Positions 9,448 to 51,468 of a stretch of 64,000 bases of DNA are shown in pieces. The DNA lies in sequence record NC_054905.1; one strand, written 5' to 3'. The stretch is from Enterobacteria phage Kha5h. Below the pieces are notes generated by a model. That model was given only the letters and a program-made list of their open reading frames with translations, was not told the origin of the DNA and did no database searches. Within the stretch, counting starts at the first letter, position 1; every line of letters begins with the position of its first letter. A program made the translations under genes and the position numbers.

Positions 9448-11027
9448 GTAATAATACATATCAACACGTTTCTAATGAATCTCGTTATGTAAAATTTGAT
9501 CCTACCGATACGAATTTTCCACCAGAGATTACTGATGTTCAGGCTGCTATAGCAGCCATTTCTCCTGCTGGCGTAAATGGAGTTCCTGATGCATCGTCAA
9601 CAACAAAGGGAATTTTATTTCTTGCCACTGAACAGGAAGTTATAGATGGAACTAATAATACCAAAGCAGTTACACCAGCAACGTTGGCAACAAGATTATC
9701 TTATCCAAACGCAACTGAAACTGTTTACGGATTAACAAGATATTCAACCAATGATGAAGCCATTGCCGGAGTTAATAATGAATCTTCTATAACTCCAGCT
9801 AAATTTACTGTTGCTCTTAATAATGCGTTTGAAACTCGTGTTTCAACTGAATCCTCGAATGGTGTTATTAAAATTTCATCTCTACCGCAAGCATTAGCTG
9901 GTGCAGATGATACTACTGCAATGACTCCATTAAAAACACAGCAGTTAGCTATTAAATTAATTGCGCAAATTGCTCCTTCTGAAACCACAGCTACAGAGTC
10001 TGACCAGGGTGTTGTTCAATTAGCAACAGTAGCACAGGTTCGTCAGGGAACTTTAAGAGAAGGCTATGCAATTTCTCCTTATACGTTTATGAATTCATCT
10101 GCTACTGAAGAATATAAAGGCGTAATTAAATTAGGAACACAATCAGAAGTTAACTCGAATAATGCTTCTGTTGCGGTTACTGGCGCAACTCTTAATGGTC
10201 GCGGTTCTACAACGTCAATGAGAGGAGTTGTTAGATTAACAACAACGGCCGGTTCACAAAGCGGAGGCGATGCTTCATCAGCACTAGCTTGGAATGCTGA
10301 CGTTATCCACCAAAGAGGCGGTCAAACTATTAATGGAACACTCCGCATTAATAACACGCTCACGATAGCTTCAGGTGGAGCAAATATTACCGGAACAGTT
10401 AACATGACCGGTGGTTATATTCAAGGTAAGCGTGTCGTAACACAAAATGAAATTGATAGAACTATTCCTGTCGGAGCTATTATGATGTGGGCCGCTGATA
10501 GTCTTCCTAGTGATGCTTGGCGTTTTTGCCACGGTGGAACTGTTTCAGCATCAGATTGTCCATTATATGCTTCTAGAATTGGAACAAGATACGGCGGAAG
10601 TTCATCAAATCCTGGATTACCTGATATGCGTGGTCTTTTTGTTCGCGGCTCTGGTCGTGGCTCTCACTTAACAAATCCAAATGTTAATGGTAATGACCAG
10701 TTTGGTAAGCCTAGATTAGGTGTAGGTTGTACTGGTGGATATGTTGGTGAAGTACAGAAACAACAGATGTCTTATCATAAACATGCTGGCGGATTTGGTG
10801 AGCATGATGATTCTGGAGCATTCGGTAATACCCGTAGATCAAATTTTGTTGGTACACGTAAAGGACTTGACTGGGATAACCGTTCATACTTCACCAATGA
10901 CGGATATGAAATTGACCCGGCATCACAACGAAATTCCAAATATACATTAAATCGTCCTGAATTAATTGGAAATGAAACACGTCCATGGAACATTTCTTTA
11001 AACTACATAATTAAGGTAAAAGAATGA
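9444..11027 (+). CDS. 12: Short tail fibre protein gp12
   Basis: 527 aa, T4 gp12 length; start overlaps gp11 stop; repetitive fibrous N-terminal half. Confidence 0.9.
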
Positions 11028-41250: not shown

Positions 41251-41304
41251 TCCTCATGTTATGTCAGTAAGATTACTATAACACAACACGAGGGACTTGT
41301 AAAC
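41251..41304 (-). promoter_or_regulatory. Early promoter plus leader cassette, copy 1
   Basis: Reverse strand GTTTAC, 17-18 nt, TATAGT, then GAGGA RBS; 54-bp element repeated at 56551-56604. Confidence 0.65.
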
Positions 41305-43361
41305 TACATCTTGAACTTTTTAGACATTCCGTTGATGTTAACCAAAGAAGCCAAGATTTGAGAAACTTCGTTTTCCTCTTCTTTTGATTCTTCTACAAGG
41401 AATTGATTAAACCCAGCCATTGGACGAACTTCACCAGTTTCCATTAGATGATCGCCATCATATACCGATTCTTCTAATTGTTCAGAAGGAGGAACGATTG
41501 TGCCTTCGATTAGATACTTGTTATAAGCAGTTTCTTTCATCATGTACGTGCTTACTTTATTAATCTTCAACAAAATTCCACGCGGTAGAATAACTTCAGC
41601 TTCTGATGGAAATCCTGATAAATGACCTGGAACGATAACTTTGATTCGTTCAGCCCCTTTAATTACCATACCTACGCTAGTTTCAGCATCTTCATTAGCA
41701 TATGTAGAATGACTACCCATATGCATCAAATCTTCTGCATCAACGGAACCTTCTCCTTCACCAGAAAATACTGCGCCGGAATCATCTAGAGCCATATAGT
41801 TTTTACCATGCTCACCGAAGATATTTGGTTTAAGCGATGTGGATACGAAGTTCTTGAAATAGAACATTTTATTTTCAATATTATGACGTAAAGTTTTAAA
41901 GGTAACTTCTTGTCCGCGATAAAGCGTAGTTCCTGGAGGAAGAACTGAACCTTTAGCAAATGCAGAATCCAACGTCTCGATGTGCTTAATAGCTCGTTCC
42001 ATATATTCTTCACGGGTAGAATCTGGTTTACCCAAAAGGAACGAGTTCATTTCAACATATGAATCTGCACAATAATCTTCAATTACATCAGATTCAGCTT
42101 GAGTTAATCCTTTTGGAGTTACTTCAGTGCTTGCGTATTCATATGCCTGGGCAGCAGATTCATTAATCAATTTATAAATGCCATTCATTACAAATTGAAT
42201 AATAGCTGTCTTTTCATCTGGCGTAGCTTTAGAACCTTTAACTAAATCATTGATAATTTTCTTAATAACATCAAAGCTATTAGAAATATTAATATCAGCA
42301 AGATCGCTTAAAATTTTATCAGTTTTATAATCAAAGAATTCTTTATTCTTTAAATATTCTTGAGAACCTTGATATGTTATATCGCTCTGCAACTTGATAG
42401 ATGGATCACGTAAACGTGCATGGGCCAATGCAATATGATTTCGGAAGCTTTCTAGTTCATAATCGTTAGATTTAAAACTAGAAGCACTTCTCATACCACC
42501 GATAGCTCCTTTGCCGAAGTTGGAACCAATCTGAATAACGCCAGAGTTCATTGGTCCTTCTGCTTTATATACCGGAACTTTAGATTCAAACTCTTGATAT
42601 TTCTTAGCGGCGAAGCTATCGCCCTGGAGTGAGGCATCGACAGTAGAATATTGAGCTTGCGCTGCTAATCGACGACTAATTTTAGTTTTCTGAATAACAG
42701 CTTGATCCGTGCGCTTATCATTTTCTAAAGCAATAGAAGCAGCAACAGCAACAGCTTTAGGAACAGCATTACCTGTTTTAACATCTACATAAACATCACC
42801 AACCTTTGATTCAACTTTTGTGAATAACTCAGTTGAAATAGGAGGTACACCTGGAATGTCTTCTAAATTGGCATTTTTACGGTAAACCATAATATATGCG
42901 TACTTTTTATCATAGTCCCAGATTTCCTTTAAAAGAACATATCGACCTGCTCCTTTAGTACGTACTAAACGGTCAGCAATAACTTGCATTTGACGAGCTG
43001 CGCCATTTGTTTTACTCTTTAGTACGCGGAATAGGCATGCGTCGATTTTATACTGCTTCATTGTTTGAAGAGCAGTATCAAAAACAGCATTAATGACGCC
43101 AATTGGATTTCCACCCAAGTTTCTAAGCTTAACCAGCGATAATTTCTCGTTGACACCTATCATTACGATATGCATCATTTTATCGCCTGGCTTAACGTTT
43201 TTATTCGTATCACCACCAGAGGTGTATGTACAAAATCTAAATCCAGGAAGCACGCTTTCTTCGCCGGCTTGAATAGCAAAAATTTGTGGTATTTTATGCT
43301 TAGGATTTAAGTTAACAACCGGCGCCGAAGCGCCGTCAAATAATTCTGTAATAAGTTCCAT
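41304..43361 (-). CDS. Alt-family ADP-ribosyltransferase paralog
   Basis: 685 aa; N-terminus MELITELFD closely similar to the adjacent Alt ORF; C-terminal ART motifs YRGQ, FVSTSL, EAEVILPRG. Confidence 0.8.
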   Translation of the reverse strand: MELITELFDGASAPVVNLNPKHKIPQIFAIQAGEESVLPGFRFCTYTSGGDTNKNVKPGDKMMHIVMIGVNEKLSLVKLRNLGGNPIGVINAVFDTALQTMKQYKIDACLFRVLKSKTNGAARQMQVIADRLVRTKGAGRYVLLKEIWDYDKKYAYIMVYRKNANLEDIPGVPPISTELFTKVESKVGDVYVDVKTGNAVPKAVAVAASIALENDKRTDQAVIQKTKISRRLAAQAQYSTVDASLQGDSFAAKKYQEFESKVPVYKAEGPMNSGVIQIGSNFGKGAIGGMRSASSFKSNDYELESFRNHIALAHARLRDPSIKLQSDITYQGSQEYLKNKEFFDYKTDKILSDLADINISNSFDVIKKIINDLVKGSKATPDEKTAIIQFVMNGIYKLINESAAQAYEYASTEVTPKGLTQAESDVIEDYCADSYVEMNSFLLGKPDSTREEYMERAIKHIETLDSAFAKGSVLPPGTTLYRGQEVTFKTLRHNIENKMFYFKNFVSTSLKPNIFGEHGKNYMALDDSGAVFSGEGEGSVDAEDLMHMGSHSTYANEDAETSVGMVIKGAERIKVIVPGHLSGFPSEAEVILPRGILLKINKVSTYMMKETAYNKYLIEGTIVPPSEQLEESVYDGDHLMETGEVRPMAGFNQFLVEESKEEENEVSQILASLVNINGMSKKFKM

Positions 43362-43364
43362 GAT

Positions 43365-45461
43365 TTATCCTTGAACGAACTTGTAAGGCATGTTTGTAAT
43401 ATCTATGCAAGACGCAATAATTCCAAGAGATGATTCGACTTTCTGTTTAACATTTGATGAAACAAATGATGCAAAATCAACTCTGTCTTCTATTTCAATA
43501 TCACCTGTCATTGCAACTACTTCGCCGGTTTCCATTAAACGGTCTCCGTCATAGATTACCGATTCGGTGAGCTCTTCCGTGGTCATAACTTCAGCTTGAA
43601 TGAGTTTTGTATTATTAGATGTTGTTCCGTCATTATTAGAAGCATCAGTTATTTTATTAACTTTGACCATCAATCCACGCGGTAGAATAACTTCAGCTTC
43701 TGTTGCTATTCCGAGACTTCCTGGATATACAACATTAACTTTATGAGCTCCATCAATTGCCCATCCTATTTGAACTTTAACGTATTCAGGATTTTCTTTA
43801 TACGCTCTTATTTCGTTTGGATTAATAGTTATTCCTTCTTCATTTTTATCAACTGTTAATTCATTGCGAGCTTCTGGTTCTAAAAGACCAATACCAGCAT
43901 GTGTAATTCCAAAACGTCCAAAAATGATAGGAGTTAAAGAAGTAGATACAAAATTTCTGAAGTAGAACACTTTATTTTTAACTAACGCTTCATATATAGG
44001 AGCAGTCATACTTTGAGCACGATAAACTGTAATGCCTTCTGGTATACGGTCACCATTTTCAAAAGCTGAATCTAAGTTATTTATAGCAGATTCAATTTCT
44101 TTTTCACTCATTACATCATATCGTTCTGGATTGTAACGACCTAAAAGAAGATTATTGATGTCAGTATATCCTGAACCGCAATATTCTCTAATGCCACGCT
44201 TTTGTGATGGAGTATATTTAGAACCATCGCGGGCAATAGTAATATCAATCATTGGACCAGCACCAATTCCAGAAAAACTGTAAATCATTCGTTTGAGGAA
44301 TTTAGTTTTTGCTGCGTTCCAGAAATTTTTAGTTATTTCTTCCCAGACTTCATCTGGTTGTCCTTTACGATTTTTATTATGATTAGCAAGCCATTTATCT
44401 TTATAATCTTCAAAGAATTGATTTACAGCTGCTGCGTATTTCTCTAAACATTTTATTGAAGTAGTTGGTTCATTTTTAATTGCATTAAAAATTACTTCTT
44501 TAATTTTTTCTGAAACTTCACCGACTTGACTCATTGGAAAGAATTTATAATCATAGTGAAGTTCATCTGCCGTTCCTTCAGCAATAATTTTTGCTGCCTT
44601 TGTTTTAGAAGCTAATGAATTAATTCCAATTTTCATTTCTTCTGCTTCGGGAATTAAAGGTGCAGTAGCTGGTTTATTAAAATTAGCTGCTGTAGATTCA
44701 TACTTCTGGAATAATTCACTTTCAAATCTAGAAGATTCCAATGACTGACTTTGTGCAATTGCTCTACGTGAAATTTTAACTTTAACGATTACAGCTTGGT
44801 CAGAACGTTTATCATTTTCTTGCGCAATAGATGCTGCAATTGCCTCATTTTTAGTTACTTGAGCTCCAGTATCTTTATTGATATAAACATCGCCGACTTT
44901 CGATTCAACTTTAGTAAAGAGCTCGGTACTAATTTCCGGAACTCCTGGAATGTCTTCTAGTGATACATTTTTGCGATGTATAAGAATATATGCATACTTT
45001 TTATCATAATCCCAGAGTTCCTTAAGAAGGACGTATCTGCCACCTGAACGACTACGGATAAGTCTATCAGCAATAACTTGAATTTGTCGAGCTTGACCAG
45101 CGGTTTTAGACTTAAGAATACGGAGCATACAGGCATCAATTTTATACTGACGCATTGTTTGCATTGCAACAGTAAAAACTGAATTGATATAATTAATTGG
45201 GCTTGGACCAAGACCTTTTAATTTAGCAATTGAACCTTTAGCAGTTAATGTAAAAGGAACAATATGCATCATTTTATCGCCCATCTTTAAATCGCGATTA
45301 GTATCACCTCCAGATGTATAGGTACATAAACGAAAGCCTGGCTGTTCAATTGCATCATCAACGTGAACTGAAAAAATTTGCGGTATTTTCTTCTTTGGAT
45401 TTAAGTTTGTAATCGGAAGAGTAGTATCTTCGTCAAATAATTCTGTAATAAGTTCCATCAT
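43365..45461 (-). CDS. alt: Alt ADP-ribosyltransferase (head-packaged), start possibly at second Met
   Basis: 698 aa; ART R-S-E motifs YRAQ, FVSTSL, EAEVILPRG; both an upstream hairpin and TATAAATA on the - strand. Confidence 0.85.
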   Translation of the reverse strand: MMELITELFDEDTTLPITNLNPKKKIPQIFSVHVDDAIEQPGFRLCTYTSGGDTNRDLKMGDKMMHIVPFTLTAKGSIAKLKGLGPSPINYINSVFTVAMQTMRQYKIDACMLRILKSKTAGQARQIQVIADRLIRSRSGGRYVLLKELWDYDKKYAYILIHRKNVSLEDIPGVPEISTELFTKVESKVGDVYINKDTGAQVTKNEAIAASIAQENDKRSDQAVIVKVKISRRAIAQSQSLESSRFESELFQKYESTAANFNKPATAPLIPEAEEMKIGINSLASKTKAAKIIAEGTADELHYDYKFFPMSQVGEVSEKIKEVIFNAIKNEPTTSIKCLEKYAAAVNQFFEDYKDKWLANHNKNRKGQPDEVWEEITKNFWNAAKTKFLKRMIYSFSGIGAGPMIDITIARDGSKYTPSQKRGIREYCGSGYTDINNLLLGRYNPERYDVMSEKEIESAINNLDSAFENGDRIPEGITVYRAQSMTAPIYEALVKNKVFYFRNFVSTSLTPIIFGRFGITHAGIGLLEPEARNELTVDKNEEGITINPNEIRAYKENPEYVKVQIGWAIDGAHKVNVVYPGSLGIATEAEVILPRGLMVKVNKITDASNNDGTTSNNTKLIQAEVMTTEELTESVIYDGDRLMETGEVVAMTGDIEIEDRVDFASFVSSNVKQKVESSLGIIASCIDITNMPYKFVQG

Positions 45462-45483
45462 AGCCTCTCTAGTGTTTATTCTA

Positions 45484-45511
45484 TTTATAAAATTAAAGGC
45501 CCGAAGGCCTT
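45484..45511 (-). promoter_or_regulatory. Late promoter TATAAATA and upstream hairpin before alt
   Basis: Reverse strand TATAAATA about 25 nt upstream of the alt ATG, preceded by AGGCC TTCG GGCCT hairpin. Confidence 0.55.
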
Positions 45512-45699
45512 TAGTAATCTAGTGGTAAGAGAGTACGATATATTTCAAACTTTGGTCCTTTTTCATAGGCATCAAATGTTTCTGTAAATTTATTATAAGC
45601 GTATGCATCTACAAATTCGAGAATGACTTGTGATACAGAAGTAGAAACATCTCCACCTTCTTTTTGAGCAATGACAATTGTTTCTAAGTAAGCTTTCAT
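45511..45699 (-). CDS. Hypothetical small protein
   Basis: 62 aa ORF between ligase and alt; start overlaps ligase stop. Confidence 0.55.
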   Translation of the reverse strand: MKAYLETIVIAQKEGGDVSTSVSQVILEFVDAYAYNKFTETFDAYEKGPKFEIYRTLLPLDY

Positions 45700-47159
45700 A
45701 GACCAGTTACCTCATGAAAATCACCAAATACATCCTCGAATGTATTAGCTTTAGTTTTATCTTCACGTAAACGAATCGCAATCGGAAGAAATAATTTAAC
45801 GTAATCAGTGCGGCCATCAGATTTTAACCAACCGTTGCATTCGCACTCTAGAATTTTTCCAATATAATAATTTTGGTTTTCCATAATGCGAGTACGGTCA
45901 AGCTCATGTGATTTTACGCCGGCTTTATCTTTTAAGCCTGAACCAGCATTTACTTTAATTTTTCCACATTCTGATTCAAGAATAAATCCACCCGCTTTAG
46001 TAGGGTCTTTACGGTGAGGATAAATTCCTACAATTTTTAAATCAACATCAATTACTTCTTTAAATTTATAAAGATTTTTTGAACGAGCATTTTCCCATAA
46101 TCCATCGATATTTTTGAGAATAATACCTTCAAGACCTTGGTCAATATACTTTTTGTAAATTACCTTAGCTTCATCTAGGTTATTTACTACTTGGTTTTCA
46201 ATTAAAATTACTTTATCATAGCCTGATGTCATTTGTTCTAGTTTAGAAAAACGTACATCATATTTTAAACGAAACGCTGGAAGACCATATATTTCTACTA
46301 ATGGAACATAGTCCCAGACCTGAAACTTCATGCATTGAGCTTCTTTTTCAGAAATGGTTCCTTTTAAGGATTTATTGGCGATTCCATTAGAAGTAGTACG
46401 AGATTCCGCTACTTCGGCGAATTCTTTAGCTTTACTAATTTTAGGATAAGCATCAAAAAGAAAATCTAGGCCTTCTGGTTCCTTTTTAACTTGCTCATGG
46501 TATACCAATTCGCCATCAATTAACACACCTTCTGGATGAATCTGGCGAGCTTCTGCAGTCATTTTGATTAACTCTTCCTTGAGAAGATCTAATCCTAGAT
46601 ATTCATTACCAGCTCGTGATAAAAGACGAACATCATCTAATTCATCACCTCTGACTTCAGCAAAGCACCGAGCTCCATCAGCTTTTAATTGGGCAAAGGC
46701 TGGAAATTTGATATTCTTATTAATGCCTTTTTCATCATAAGAACTTGCCAGCATTTGAGGTTGTTCAGGAATTAAACCTGGCCAAACTTTGTTTGCAATA
46801 GATACTGATGCACCACATTCAAGGTCTCGCATCATCACCCGACGCAAAACTTCAACATCATCTTTTTTACCGTCAGCAATATATCCAGTTAATTCCTCAA
46901 TTGCCGCATTTCCTGTCAATTTCCGAGTAGCTAACGTGAATTCAATGAAGTCAAGCATATCGGTAAGAGTCAACATTCCAAAACTCTGGGTAGCAATACC
47001 CGGTTTAGGCCATTTCTTGATATAATACTGTAACCCACGAGAATAAGTCAGACGATATACTCGTTTAAGCAATTCATTATCTTTATTCTTTTCAAGAATT
47101 GCTTGCTTCTGCTTAGTTGAACCAATAGATGCTATTTCGTTCAGAATTTTAAGAATCAT
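45696..47159 (-). CDS. 30: ATP-dependent DNA ligase gp30
   Basis: 487 aa, T4 ligase length; adenylation motif KADGARC. Confidence 0.92.
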   Translation of the reverse strand: MILKILNEIASIGSTKQKQAILEKNKDNELLKRVYRLTYSRGLQYYIKKWPKPGIATQSFGMLTLTDMLDFIEFTLATRKLTGNAAIEELTGYIADGKKDDVEVLRRVMMRDLECGASVSIANKVWPGLIPEQPQMLASSYDEKGINKNIKFPAFAQLKADGARCFAEVRGDELDDVRLLSRAGNEYLGLDLLKEELIKMTAEARQIHPEGVLIDGELVYHEQVKKEPEGLDFLFDAYPKISKAKEFAEVAESRTTSNGIANKSLKGTISEKEAQCMKFQVWDYVPLVEIYGLPAFRLKYDVRFSKLEQMTSGYDKVILIENQVVNNLDEAKVIYKKYIDQGLEGIILKNIDGLWENARSKNLYKFKEVIDVDLKIVGIYPHRKDPTKAGGFILESECGKIKVNAGSGLKDKAGVKSHELDRTRIMENQNYYIGKILECECNGWLKSDGRTDYVKLFLPIAIRLREDKTKANTFEDVFGDFHEVTGL

Positions 47160-47425
47160 TGTTCATCCTTTAGAGTTTGGTTTACAGCTCTATTATAAAT
47201 CAATTCATCATTAAGCTCAGTCAAAGACCTGTGGTACGTGGTTCTAACTTTATTTCCTTGCATCCAGTGCTTGACGTAAATGAAACCTTGCTCTACACAT
47301 TTTTTAAAAATTCGTTCGTCTTTTTGAGCTCGGAATTCTGGATTGCATCTAAAAAATTGATTTACGTGACCGTAATCACGTGTAGTATTACCTTCATTTT
47401 CATAAATAGTGTGAACGACAAACAT
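47156..47425 (-). CDS. Hypothetical protein (30.1-like)
   Basis: 89 aa ORF, translationally coupled to ligase. Confidence 0.6.
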   Translation of the reverse strand: MFVVHTIYENEGNTTRDYGHVNQFFRCNPEFRAQKDERIFKKCVEQGFIYVKHWMQGNKVRTTYHRSLTELNDELIYNRAVNQTLKDEQ

Positions 47426-48261
47426 TAGAATGCTCCTTGGAAAATATTATCACCACTAGTAGGTCTATTATACAAATACTCTATGCCACCGGGTTTAATA
47501 TAGTTCCATGTCTGAAACGGATGCGTCTGATATGGATGATATGGATTATAAGGATTAAACCCAGGAGTTCTCCAGGTAGTGTTCCAAGGAAAAGAATCGT
47601 TTTTGATCATCTTCTCAATTACATCTTTTATAGCTTTTTCACGATCAAAACTTTCTTTAATTTCCTTCGATGGAAAAAGCTTATTCTCGACATCATTCCA
47701 TGTATAAACTCGCTGTGCAGTTTTTGGAATACTGTCACGCTCTCCTCGAGCCATCCAATAAACAGGAACATTTAATATTTCACTCGCGTGATCGCAGTGG
47801 TGAGCGAGATCGTCAATATAACAAATTACGTTATATTTTTCTTTTGCTTTTTTGAACAGCTCTTCTTTTGAAGAATCATGACTACACATCAGTACTTCTG
47901 AGAAGGCACCAGGAAAAAGAGCATTCAAATTAAATTGACGATTCAGCAGAGCGTCAATAGAATCACCCAATGCTGTAACAGCTACAAAATTATAATCTTC
48001 TTTTAATTTGTTAATTACACACAGGGCATCTTTATATGGAGACAAGTAACGAATAAAATCTGAACGATTATATTTTTCAATTAACTTGACACCAAGTTCT
48101 TCATCACAGTTAAAGAGTTTACCTGGAGAAATAAATTTTTCGTCTTGAATCATTTTTAAAATATGTTCTAATGGAAGATTATATTTTTGGGCAAAATAAG
48201 GAAGGCCTGATTGCCAGCTTAAACATACTCCATCAATATCAGTTAAAATAGTAGGCTTCAT
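47425..48261 (-). CDS. HAD-superfamily-like hydrolase (30.2-like)
   Basis: 278 aa; N-terminal motif ILTDIDGV and a later YIDD motif resemble HAD phosphatase motifs I and IV. Confidence 0.6.
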   Translation of the reverse strand: MKPTILTDIDGVCLSWQSGLPYFAQKYNLPLEHILKMIQDEKFISPGKLFNCDEELGVKLIEKYNRSDFIRYLSPYKDALCVINKLKEDYNFVAVTALGDSIDALLNRQFNLNALFPGAFSEVLMCSHDSSKEELFKKAKEKYNVICYIDDLAHHCDHASEILNVPVYWMARGERDSIPKTAQRVYTWNDVENKLFPSKEIKESFDREKAIKDVIEKMIKNDSFPWNTTWRTPGFNPYNPYHPYQTHPFQTWNYIKPGGIEYLYNRPTSGDNIFQGAF

Positions 48262-48716
48262 AGAGAGTCTCTTAATAGGTTTAACACATCAATAAATTCA
48301 GCTTCGGTTAGTATTGTATCATCTTTTGTTAGACCACTAGCCATGCTGTGCTTCAAAACTTTTCCTTTCGAGGCTTGTAATGCATCACGAAAGCCCTTGT
48401 TTTGAATCGCTGCTTCAAAATATGCATTTGTGTATAATTCTTTCCACGCCGGGGAGTATCTTGAAAACGGAACTCCAAGCCAGAAGAGGGTCCCACGGTC
48501 CTGAGCTCTAGCATAAGACCTTCCAGCTTGTTGAGCGGCAAGCCCGGATAACCCAAATATACGACGTTGTTGTTCAACGTTTTTCACCTTGCATCCTTGG
48601 AGGAATCCTTCAAGACCTCCAAATTGAATACCATCCATGACGAAAGGCCATTGGGCGAAATTACTTAATGCACATGATGGCCACCTAAAATTGCTTCTAA
48701 TCTCTAACTCAGACAT
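48258..48716 (-). CDS. NADAR (YbiA-like) domain protein (30.3-like)
   Basis: Track ORF starts at an upstream non-ATG codon; ATG at 48716 gives 152 aa; motif LSNFAQWPFVMDG matches the FSNFAxWPxxxDG core of YbiA/NADAR proteins. Confidence 0.65.
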   Translation of the reverse strand: MSELEIRSNFRWPSCALSNFAQWPFVMDGIQFGGLEGFLQGCKVKNVEQQRRIFGLSGLAAQQAGRSYARAQDRGTLFWLGVPFSRYSPAWKELYTNAYFEAAIQNKGFRDALQASKGKVLKHSMASGLTKDDTILTEAEFIDVLNLLRDSL

Positions 48717-48915
48717 TTTCAATGCTTATAATCTCAACATCAGCCCAATGACCATAGCAAGGAAGACGAAATTCAACTGGCCAGTTAGGATCCTTTTCTA
48801 ATATAATAGACTTAACTTGTGGTTCTTCATGTTCATCAGTATATGGATTTTTATCTGTTACTTTATATGTGACCTTAATGTACTGAATTCCAAAAATCTT
48901 ATTAATTATATTCAT
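48709..48915 (-). CDS. Hypothetical small protein
   Basis: 68 aa ORF in the tightly packed - strand cluster. Confidence 0.5.
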   Translation of the reverse strand: MNIINKIFGIQYIKVTYKVTDKNPYTDEHEEPQVKSIILEKDPNWPVEFRLPCYGHWADVEIISIENV

Positions 48916-49109
48916 ACTAATTCCTTTAATCCGTAAATAGGAGATAATTCATCACCCATGCGAAGGTCTTCATTTCCATCTACCCAGGAAACAATATAAG
49001 CCTCTTTTATTTGAATACCACTCCATTTAAATGGAGGTAGAACCTTAGAAATTAATCCAGGTATACCAACTCCCTTTAATTCAACAGTTTGACCTAAAAA
49101 GAATTTCAT
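48912..49109 (-). CDS. Hypothetical small protein
   Basis: 65 aa ORF, start overlaps upstream stop. Confidence 0.5.
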   Translation of the reverse strand: MKFFLGQTVELKGVGIPGLISKVLPPFKWSGIQIKEAYIVSWVDGNEDLRMGDELSPIYGLKELV

Positions 49110-49396
49110 TAGAACCTCATCTGAAAACCGTGCGATTTAACATTACCGCCACCAATATCAGAGATATTAATTTCGCGCGCAATTGAAGGGTCAATGTCAA
49201 TTTCACGATTGAGTTTAGTGATAGCTAAAGTATCGCGCCCATTTACAGTACGAAACTCTAAAGGACAAACCACATCAACGTAGTTTTTAATCGATTCACT
49301 GGTAGGCTGCAAATGAGCAGGAAGGTCTTTAGGCGCCTTTGAGAAAACAACTTCGCAGAAGTTTTTACGGGTATCAAAATAAGTAGTCATAAACAT
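49109..49396 (-). CDS. Hypothetical protein; start trimmed to the ATG after a GAGGA RBS
   Basis: Track ORF of 107 aa runs through an upstream hairpin; Met 13 is preceded by GAGGAAA, giving 96 aa. Confidence 0.55.
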   Translation of the reverse strand: MFMTTYFDTRKNFCEVVFSKAPKDLPAHLQPTSESIKNYVDVVCPLEFRTVNGRDTLAITKLNREIDIDPSIAREINISDIGGGNVKSHGFQMRF

Positions 49397-49437
49397 AATA
49401 TTTTCCTCAGTAAGGGGCCGAAGCCCCCTCATTTATT

Positions 49438-49803
49438 TTAAATATCAAATTCATTAAGAACTACATCAAAGATTGCTTCAAGATGCTCAGGTTTAGCTCT
49501 GTTACTCAGAATATGACGAATCCAAGTTTTAACCAGAAGCTTGCGATTAGCACCATTCCAGCAAGGATGAGCCCCTAAATCGCGTTGACGGAAATCATCA
49601 TCCAGAGCAATTTTGAAGTTGGAACCTTCCATTGTGATTGAAACCGTGATACCGTTTTCAAATCGCATATAAACGTAATTAGGAGTCATATACTGCTCAA
49701 TTTCGCATACTGATCCATTTTGATGTTTCCAAAGGCAAATAGTATCAATAGAACCTGCAATACCATTAGAAACATATTTACGTTCAAAGTTGATGTAGTT
49801 CAT
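49438..49803 (-). CDS. Hypothetical protein
   Basis: 121 aa ORF preceded by a hairpin-promoter cassette and GGAGAA RBS. Confidence 0.6.
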   Translation of the reverse strand: MNYINFERKYVSNGIAGSIDTICLWKHQNGSVCEIEQYMTPNYVYMRFENGITVSITMEGSNFKIALDDDFRQRDLGAHPCWNGANRKLLVKTWIRHILSNRAKPEHLEAIFDVVLNEFDI

Positions 49804-49830
49804 TTTTATTCTCCAAGATGTTTAATTGCG

Positions 49831-49872
49831 GTACAGGTATATAATATCATATCCTGTACCAAAGTAAACAAT
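49831..49872 (-). promoter_or_regulatory. Hairpin-promoter cassette (early promoter with -10 inside a stem-loop)
   Basis: Reverse strand GTTTAC then inverted repeat GGTACAGG ... CCTGTACC enclosing TATTAT, followed by GGAGAA RBS. Confidence 0.55.
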
Positions 49873-50204
49873 TATTTTACTACTTTCCAGTGCTTCATGT
49901 CAAGTTTACCGACTTTTTTCATCTTCTCAATTAAGCGTTCTGCACGTTGGCGAGCTGTAACATAATGCCATTCACCTAATTCATTTTGTTCAATTTTTCC
50001 AACGATTACTGTATTCAATTCATAAATCCAACCAGTAAAGAAATTATGAACTTGAATTGTAAAGGTGAAATCTGTTCCCATACCTTCTGTTGTTTCTACT
50101 TCAATAATATCACCTTCAACTGCCATTAAGAACCACATAGTTTCATCATATTTACCATTGAAGCATTTAGTTTTAACTGCAGCGTTCAGATTAATCGTTT
50201 TCAT
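49872..50204 (-). CDS. Hypothetical protein
   Basis: 110 aa ORF preceded by GTTTAC...TAGTAT early-type promoter and AAGGAG RBS. Confidence 0.6.
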   Translation of the reverse strand: MKTINLNAAVKTKCFNGKYDETMWFLMAVEGDIIEVETTEGMGTDFTFTIQVHNFFTGWIYELNTVIVGKIEQNELGEWHYVTARQRAERLIEKMKKVGKLDMKHWKVVK

Positions 50205-50224
50205 TTTATTCTCCTTTGTTTGTG

Positions 50225-50265
50225 TAAGATAATACTATCACAAAGGAGCTATACTGTAAACAACT
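50225..50265 (-). promoter_or_regulatory. Early promoter with RBS-containing stem-loop
   Basis: Reverse strand GTTTAC, 17-18 nt, TAGTAT; flanking inverted repeat CTCCTTTGTG / CAAAGGAG covers the AAGGAG RBS. Confidence 0.5.
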
Positions 50266-50288
50266 TTATGCAATCTTTGGAAAATAAA

Positions 50289-50312
50289 AAAGGACTCCCG
50301 AAGGAGTCCTCA
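50289..50312 (-). terminator. Rho-independent terminator after the 30.9-like ORF
   Basis: Reverse strand AGGACTCC TTCG GGAGTCCT followed by TTTTTTATTTT. Confidence 0.8.
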
Positions 50313-50314
50313 AC

Positions 50315-50533
50315 TTATGCTTTCTGCTTACCAAAACGAGAAGCATCATCTCGAAGAACCGCACGTGCTCGGCGCATGATCTTCTCAACAGTTTGATTGA
50401 TACGAGAGTTCGACCCACGCTTGTAGCCAGCGCGTTTAGAATCACCAACTTTCTTTTCAACTGCTTTCTTTGCTTTAACTTGTTTTGCCATTATAAATTC
50501 TCTTTTAAATGAAAATGCAGGACTTATTGGCAT
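50315..50533 (-). CDS. Small lysine/arginine-rich basic protein (30.9-like); start ambiguous, 72 or 58 aa
   Basis: ORF with two candidate starts; strongly basic composition; followed by UUCG terminator. Confidence 0.55.
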   Translation of the reverse strand: MPISPAFSFKREFIMAKQVKAKKAVEKKVGDSKRAGYKRGSNSRINQTVEKIMRRARAVLRDDASRFGKQKA

Positions 50534-50736
50534 TGCCTGCGCAAGCCCTCAAGGGGAACATAGGTTTTTGGATATTTAACGACCAGGATAACCATAAACC
50601 CGTCATCATTCACATTCAAGAGGTACACCGTAAAACTGCCGGGGTCTTAAAACTATAATGATTCGCAAATCATTAATCAGACAGTTCGACGGCTCCTCGA
50701 TTTTAGCTCGCACTAAGGCAGTGAATCTCCAATAAA

Positions 50737-50985
50737 TTACTTCAGTGTTACCACAAAGTGACGAACTGCTTTTCGTGCAGCAGAAGCCAGAGGCTTAGCA
50801 TATTTAAGTTCATCTTTTTCCTGAAGCTCAGCAGCTAATGCAGTTTGAGCAGGATTCAGATGTTTGAAATAACGCAGGATTTCAAGAGCTTCGGCTTCAA
50901 CATCAATAGATGCGCCATAGTTTTCGTGACCATTATTCCATGCGTTTCGTTGCAGTTCAAGAGCGTGTTGTAATTGTTTAATCAT
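50737..50985 (-). CDS. rIII: Lysis inhibition accessory protein rIII
   Basis: 82 aa, T4 RIII length; position between gene 31 and the 30.x cluster. Confidence 0.8.
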   Translation of the reverse strand: MIKQLQHALELQRNAWNNGHENYGASIDVEAEALEILRYFKHLNPAQTALAAELQEKDELKYAKPLASAARKAVRHFVVTLK

Positions 50986-51124
50986 TTAAAAATTCTCGTT
51001 AGAGATTAAAACTCGGTAGTCACGTTCTTCTGAATTTCATCTTCTTTCGACAGATCTCTCAGTTGTAGACTACCACATAGAATTGTTCGGTTAACTTATT
51101 ATTCCGACACCCAATTCATATTAT

Positions 51125-51132
51125 TATTTATA
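51125..51132 (-). promoter_or_regulatory. TATAAATA late-promoter motif upstream of rIII
   Basis: Reverse-strand TATAAATA immediately after the gene 31 stop. Confidence 0.45.
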
Positions 51133-51468
51133 TCACTTATAAAGACACGGAATAGCTTTATAGTGACAGGTAACGAATTTTTGCTTAATTTCTTTTGGCT
51201 GCTTAAGACCCAGAGCTACAAAAGGATGTGGAACGTTTCGAATTTGACCAACTGGAAGAGAAGTCAAATCACCAACTTCGCAGAAACCTTCAGGAACATC
51301 AGGACCGACAGAGTGAACTACACACAGTTCAGGAACTTCACCTTGAACACGTTTACCGATGATAAGTCCTGATTCTGTAACTTCTTCATCACCGGCTTGT
51401 GCAGGTTCAGAAACTAAAATAACATATTCACCGACAGCACGAATTGGTAGCTGTTGTACTTCAGACAT
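51133..51468 (-). CDS. 31: Co-chaperonin gp31 (GroES analogue)
   Basis: 111 aa, T4 gp31 length; position before rIII. Confidence 0.88.

Follow-up and report, generated by a model that had tools for sequence, protein, structure and literature searches.

Gene 30.3 of a T4-like phage as an intact adfN allele, very probably encoding a stand-alone NADAR-fold enzyme that reverses DarT1 modification of phage DNA

The window analyzed here is a stretch of 64,000 nucleotides from Enterobacteria phage Kha5h (NC_054905.1). It belongs to a Tequatrovirus, and its genes are arranged in the order known from T4 and RB3, with gene 54, alt.-3, alt.-2, alt, alt.1, DNA ligase (gene 30), 30.1, 30.2, 30.3, 30.4 and, further on, rIII. 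Over the 3.5-kb stretch around gene 30.3, the sequence shared 98.5% identity with the Tequatrovirus genome that matched best, and 97.8-98.2% with others such as those of phiD1 and RB3. Gene 30.3, the gene named adfN in T4, occupies 48258..48716 of the minus strand. From an ATG start, it encodes 152 amino acids and a stop, comprising a stand-alone NADAR core domain. The 459 nt of this coding sequence equal the length annotated for 30.3 in T4, and the ATG at 48716 is also the T4 start, which sets the residue numbering used in the literature. An earlier note, made from the letters alone, had assigned a 152-aa product to positions 48258-48722. The ORF is real, lies on the minus strand and does yield 152 aa from its ATG, but position 48722 is an in-frame TTG located two codons upstream of the ATG at 48716, and the longer span (48258..48722, 465 nt) would give 154 aa.

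The start of 30.3 and the stop of 30.4 overlap by 8 nt (ATGTCTGA), and the stop of 30.3 in turn overlaps the ATG of gene 30.2 (47425..48261, minus strand, 278 aa) in the sequence ATGA. These stop/start overlaps place 30.3 in a tightly packed, and probably translationally coupled, string of genes. Two strong terminator-like hairpins were seen on the minus strand, one at 50290..50311 (GAGGACTCC-TTCG-GGAGTCCTT, followed by a T-run), and the other at 45494..45513 (TAAAGGCC-TTCG-GGCCTTTA), where it separates the 30.x/ligase string from alt. The minus-strand genes between the hairpins (30.8-30.7-...-30.3-30.2-30.1-ligase-alt.1) are closely packed, and the presence of a hairpin at both ends suggests that they form one transcription unit, which does not include alt. 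The best promoter-like site on the minus strand was TTGACA-18-TAAAAT, running from 49903 to 49874, just upstream of 30.7. When positions 45400-51200 were scanned with the sigma-70 consensus, 18 sites were returned, compared with 21.2 +/- 3.6 in shuffled sequence, and since sites were no commoner than in shuffled sequence, we make no claim about where transcription starts.

Farther along the same strand, ~3-7 kb downstream of 30.3, are the two ADP-ribosyltransferase genes that the earlier note had pointed out, and the products of both match the Pfam family ADPrib_exo_Tox. The nearer one (43365..45461, minus strand) encodes 698 aa, corresponds to alt of RB3-type phages and matches with an E value of 5.4e-37, and the second (41304..43361, minus strand) encodes 685 aa, corresponds to alt.-2 of RB3-type phages and matches with an E value of 3.6e-20. 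Alt modifies arginine in proteins. The tandem of full-length Alt paralogues resembles that of RB3, whereas in T4 only small remnants, alt.-1 and alt.-2, are found in place of the second copy. The two copies have diverged, sharing ~42% identity as judged by tblastn cross-hits in related loci.

The window protein was identical to T4 gp30.3 at 151 of 152 positions (99.3%) and of equal length, with the conservative substitution I125M as the sole difference. At the nucleotide level, the two genes differed at 7 of 459 positions; all 7 were third codon positions and 6 of the changes were synonymous, indicating that the 30.3 frame is under purifying selection. Position 125 is located two residues from H123, but the corresponding column of the family alignment varies, and other phages carry alleles that are 100% identical to the window protein. 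Taking these points together with the 99.3% identity, the I125M allele would be expected to behave like T4 AdfN. The protein also matched the Pfam family PF08010 (Phage_30_3) over all 138 of 138 profile positions, with a score of 235.3 bits against a gathering cut-off of 36 (E 2.2e-70).

In T4, a further, out-of-frame gene of 75 aa, 30.3', is annotated inside 30.3, and the corresponding stretch in the window is 48353..48580 on the minus strand. The ATG of 30.3' is replaced by ACG in the window, by a substitution that leaves N46 of the 30.3 frame unaltered (AAT to AAC), and of the 7 positions at which window and T4 differ, 3 alter amino acids in the 30.3' frame, compared with 1 in 30.3. Both the loss of the start codon and this distribution of changes argue that 30.3' is not a conserved gene, and it was therefore rejected as a functional part of the locus.

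Direct searches left the function of 30.3 unexplained. With hmmscan against Pfam at E<=10, the protein matched PF08010 and, by chance, DUF724, with no match to PF08719 (NADAR, formerly DUF1768). The PHROGs family was 652, which is labelled 'unknown function', NCBIfam gave no match for 30.3, and PADLOC gave no defence-system match for either 30.3 or 30.2. A single-sequence search of the PDB returned an ATP pyrophosphatase at E 0.6, which was rejected as a chance match. The profile of PHROG 652 has 296 positions, of which the 152-aa protein covers only 126-272, and some members of the family thus appear to have ~125 additional residues at the N-terminus, as an extension or a fusion.

The gene was resolved only by family profile, structure prediction and the literature. 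A set of 104 homologues was collected at E<=1e-3, and 71 full-length sequences among them were aligned to build a family profile. When this 71-sequence alignment was compared with E. coli YbiA by hhalign, the match scored 93.6%, with an E value of 2.2e-7 over 90 columns, and when the family HMM was run against PDB sequences, YbiA (2B3W) was the only meaningful match (E 0.0043). The Pfam NADAR model was matched individually by 27 of the 71 family members, with a best E value of 1.5e-7, and in the reciprocal comparison YbiA matched PF08010 weakly (E 0.0041). The structure prediction that the earlier note had proposed as a check, an AlphaFold2 model based on the 71-sequence alignment, was confident (pLDDT 93.7, pTM 0.89) and supported the NADAR fold, with YbiA as its second-best structural match. 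The NADAR link is visible only at the level of the family profile or the structure. The earlier note's assignment to a NADAR (YbiA-like) domain was borne out by the fold, by the profile-profile comparison and by the catalytic residues described below. The profile check it had proposed against NADAR/DUF1768 had a divided outcome, being negative for the single protein against PF08719 at E<=10, and positive for the family profile against YbiA; applied naively, the lack of a direct PF08719 match would have been a false negative.

The N-terminal NADAR signature, LSNFAQWPFVMDG, spans codons 17-29 (48630..48668, minus strand). It had been described as a close match to the FSNFAxWPxxxDG core of the family, and we found it to be identical to the corresponding YbiA segment, FSNFAAWPIKVDG, at 9 of 13 positions. 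Residues S18, N19, and F20 were invariant in both of the family samples that we examined, namely the 71 homologues and a set of 81 sequences made up of the window protein and homologues translated from 80 viral loci; F25 was also invariant (81/81 sequences). Since S18, N19, and F20 do not vary and the family profile reaches YbiA at E 2.2e-7, the likeness of the motif goes beyond chance.

The catalytic residues on which the assignment depends were also located. The catalytic glutamate E36 (GAA, 48609..48611, minus strand) aligned with YbiA E48, and K43 (AAG, 48588..48590, minus strand), the lysine that coordinates the ADP-ribose phosphate, aligned with YbiA K55. Both residues were invariant in 81 of 81 sequences, and the counterparts of this conserved Glu/Lys pair in the E. 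coli C7 NADAR are E88/K95. Because the hhalign alignment ends at K122 of the window protein and V124 of YbiA, H123 (CAC, 48348..48350, minus strand) is placed opposite YbiA E125. H123 was present in all 80 of the 80 sequences that cover the position, and it is the residue of the last strand by which the phage (gp30.3) NADAR clade is recognised, since previous studies report Glu at this position in the YbiA type, Asp in DarT1-associated (DarG1) NADARs, and His in phage gp30.3 (PMC11543638, PMC11125620). The alignment thus showed E36, K43, and H123 to be present and invariant, as the earlier note's reading called for. The C-terminal alpha-helix (codons 138-152, 48261..48305, minus strand) was modelled as helix over residues 138-151 with high confidence, and it is intact, with no frameshift. 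In its position in the order rIII ... 30.4-30.3-30.2-30.1-ligase, in E36, K43, and H123, and in the intact C-terminal helix, the gene agrees with that of T4, from which it differs by I125M and 6 synonymous changes.

The likeness to YbiA raises the alternative that 30.3 has a housekeeping role as a YbiA-type N-glycosidase, with intermediates of the riboflavin pathway as its substrates, because YbiA is annotated as an N-glycosidase and was the second-best structural match. We regard this as close to negligible in probability. Glu125 of YbiA, the last-strand glutamate that defines the YbiA subfamily, is replaced by His123 in 30.3, and the NADARs nearest to the gp30.3 clade are reported to be those of the DarG1 type (PMC11825919). 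The phage context of 30.3 and the phenotype of its deletion point elsewhere too, with YbiA found in a housekeeping/LexA-operon context, and 30.3 in one of phage counter-defence. The two proteins share ~21% identity.

That phenotype comes from the study of Johannesman et al. (Nat Commun 2025; PMC11825919), in which T4 gp30.3 was renamed AdfN (anti-DarT factor NADAR). The resistance that T-even phages show to DarTG1 was mapped to gene 30.3, AdfN was found to be both necessary and sufficient, and the protein was identified as a NADAR-fold DNA ADP-ribosylglycohydrolase that removes the ADP-ribose installed by DarT1 (PMC11825919). Deletion of adfN from T4 or T2 abolished plaque formation on DarTG1 cells, and ectopic adfN rescued RB69 on these cells, the RB69 allele being inactive because of a frameshift that eliminates the last 15 residues. 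Rescue by AdfN was weakened by E36A, by K43A, and by an engineered C-terminal truncation, and ADP-ribose was removed from DarT1-modified DNA in vitro by purified AdfN, but not by E36A. AdfN and DarT1 did not interact in a two-hybrid assay, and AdfN did not counter the thymidine-specific DarTG2 (PMC11825919). In an independent in vitro study, the T4 NADAR removed guanosine-ADPr, but not thymidine-ADPr (PMC11125620), and a 2026 paper also reports that the T4 NADAR hydrolyses G-ADPr, with cytidine-ADPr reversal listed in its summary table only for NADAR- and YbiA-type enzymes (PMC12945103).

By analogy with the 99.3%-identical T4 enzyme, the window protein is predicted to be an ADP-ribosyl-guanine N-glycohydrolase, and the window allele would be expected to confer the DarTG1 resistance that has been demonstrated for the alleles of T4 and T2. 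The suggestion of the earlier note that the protein counteracts a host ADP-ribosylation (DarT-type) defence has found its experimental counterpart in T4 AdfN (PMC11825919). In the proposed mechanism, DarT1 would ADP-ribosylate guanines of the phage DNA after infection of a DarTG1 host and so block replication; AdfN would then hydrolyse the guanine-N2-ADP-ribose bond, so that ADP-ribose is set free and the DNA returns to its unmodified state, in which the phage could replicate. Catalysis would depend on E36 and K43, the contacts to the ribose and phosphates of ADP-ribose, together with the clade-specific H123. AdfN would in this scheme be an orphan, minimal, antitoxin-like eraser that acts on the damage, rather than a binder of the toxin. 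The identity with gp30.3, the NADAR fold, the catalytic residues, and the integrity of the allele are seen in the window itself, and, with activity and phenotype taken from the published work on the T4 protein, the ORF is very probably adfN (gene 30.3) of a T4-like phage, encoding a stand-alone NADAR-fold N-glycosidase that reverses DarT1 modification of phage DNA.

A broader or different substrate range was also considered, in which 30.3 would degrade soluble ADP-ribose-derived signals or toxins, or remove ADP-ribose from RNA, and thereby counter other NAD-based defences instead of, or besides, repairing DNA. Removal of G-ADPr from RNA, too, has been reported for every NADAR family, the T4 enzyme included (PMC12945103), and Johannesman et al. 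speculate on further defences that ADP-ribosylate DNA or RNA (PMC11825919). However, no experiment supports a soluble substrate for the gp30.3 clade, whereas the activity on DNA and the DarTG1 phenotype are direct, and we consider this alternative unlikely, and best viewed as a possible extra role rather than a replacement for DNA repair.

Several features distinguish AdfN from related systems. DarG1, the DarT1-associated NADAR of the BC4488 family (e.g., the G. lovleyi NADAR, PDB 8BAT, and the E. coli C7 NADAR), is encoded in one operon with the DarT1 toxin, whereas 30.3 is an orphan with 30.4 and 30.2 as its neighbors and no adjacent DarT gene. DarG1 also carries an N-terminal extension (219 aa in 8BAT) that is lacking in the 152-aa 30.3 protein, and has a catalytic Asp on the last strand, where 30.3 has His; moreover, the T4 protein, in contrast to DarG1, is no antitoxin in uninfected cells. 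Two other phage anti-DarT factors, AdfA and AdfB, serve the same end, namely escape from DarTG defence, but these are small proteins of no known fold family whose binding blocks the toxin, while AdfN reverses the modification enzymatically and showed no interaction with DarT1.

The proximity of the transferase genes raised the possibility that 30.3 acts on phage-made modifications. In this alternative, 30.3 would erase or tune modifications placed on host proteins by Alt, by Alt-like transferases, or by ModA/ModB, and the earlier note had likewise allowed that it might tune phage-driven ADP-ribosylation. Its support comes from the position of the two genes on the same strand and from the remark of Iyer et al. 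(2022) that NADARs of T4-like phages are early genes occurring along with ARTs. We surveyed 80 loci with 30.3 homologues, including flanks of up to 8 kb, in which Alt was sought by tblastn at 1e-5 with T4-type Alt, a search that would miss unrelated ART families. Among close relatives (at least 84% identity), alt was nearby wherever the contig reached that far. In contrast, just 2 of the 65 distant loci, whose homologues were 37-46% identical, had alt within 8 kb, and the homologue of Vibrio phage KVP40 (5007..5471 of the retrieved locus) had a-gt.4 on one side and the recombination nuclease genes 47/46 on the other. On the basis of this survey, functional coupling to Alt was rejected, and the linkage of 30.3 with alt appears to be synteny inherited among T-even phages, rather than a functional tie or a family-wide feature. 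Alt is also set apart from the 30.x string by the hairpin at 45494-45513, the demonstrated NADAR chemistry concerns N-glycosidic ADP-ribose on the base guanine and not on protein arginine (PMC11125620, PMC12945103, PMC11543638), and DarTG1 fully accounts for the deletion phenotype (PMC11825919). We therefore find a role in reversing Alt-type modification highly improbable, and the tuning proposal was not upheld; the only substrate demonstrated so far for the T4 enzyme is guanine-ADP-ribose in nucleic acid.

The survey also revealed other arrangements of the gene. In distant phages of the T4 superfamily, the 30.3 homologue was relocated, recurrently among DNA replication and repair genes, and in some metagenomic contigs it lay immediately beside the DNA ligase gene, with 30.2 either present or absent.

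Although AdfN reverses the DarT1 modification, the T4 protein failed to save uninfected cells from DarT1 toxicity, and rescued non-T-even phages only weakly (PMC11825919, PMC11125620), so that a picture in which the enzyme alone suffices is incomplete. Its full effectiveness only in T-even infection implies the need for a T-even factor or a specificity determinant, and the authors of these studies infer either a potentiating factor of T-even phages, or a change of specificity that goes with the His substitution. The probably translationally coupled gp30.2 is a candidate for such a factor, and might, for example, process the released ADP-ribose, or localise or stabilise AdfN, although we consider this identification improbable. 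The N-terminus of gp30.2, MKPTILTDIDGV, contains DIDGV, resembling the DxDGV motif of HAD phosphatases, and the C-terminal tail is rich in Pro, Tyr, and Asn. The protein had no Pfam match at E<=10 and none in NCBIfam or PADLOC, its best PDB sequence match, a 5'(3')-deoxyribonucleotidase, was non-significant (E 0.92), and a single-sequence AlphaFold model was unusable (pLDDT 38). Some GenBank records call gp30.2 a HAD-like hydrolase or phosphatase. Gene 30.2 accompanied 30.3 in T-even/Tevenvirinae-like relatives; among the 65 distant loci it did so in 6, and most had no 30.2 nearby.

The function of 30.3 as an anti-DarTG1 NADAR is already known (PMC11825919), the gene being near-identical to one whose product has been characterised experimentally, and our analysis is a validation rather than a discovery, in that the earlier note had recovered both family and role from raw sequence alone. 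In T4, 30.3 remained 'hypothetical' for decades and was solved in 2024-2025. Nearly all GenBank/RefSeq records list it as a 'hypothetical protein', odd labels such as 'DprA-like' and 'homing endonuclease' also occur at the locus, and several records give a protein of 126 aa that begins at the internal Met27 and has lost the SNF signature (e.g., RB3_200 of RB3, 10260..10640 of the retrieved locus). The full 152-aa frame is nevertheless intact (in RB9, tblastn 98.7% over residues 1-152). Because Pfam models Phage_30_3 apart from NADAR, routine annotation misses the function. With an intact adfN allele, the phage should resist DarTG1-type defence, and adfN status is relevant to predicting the host range of T4-like therapeutic phages.
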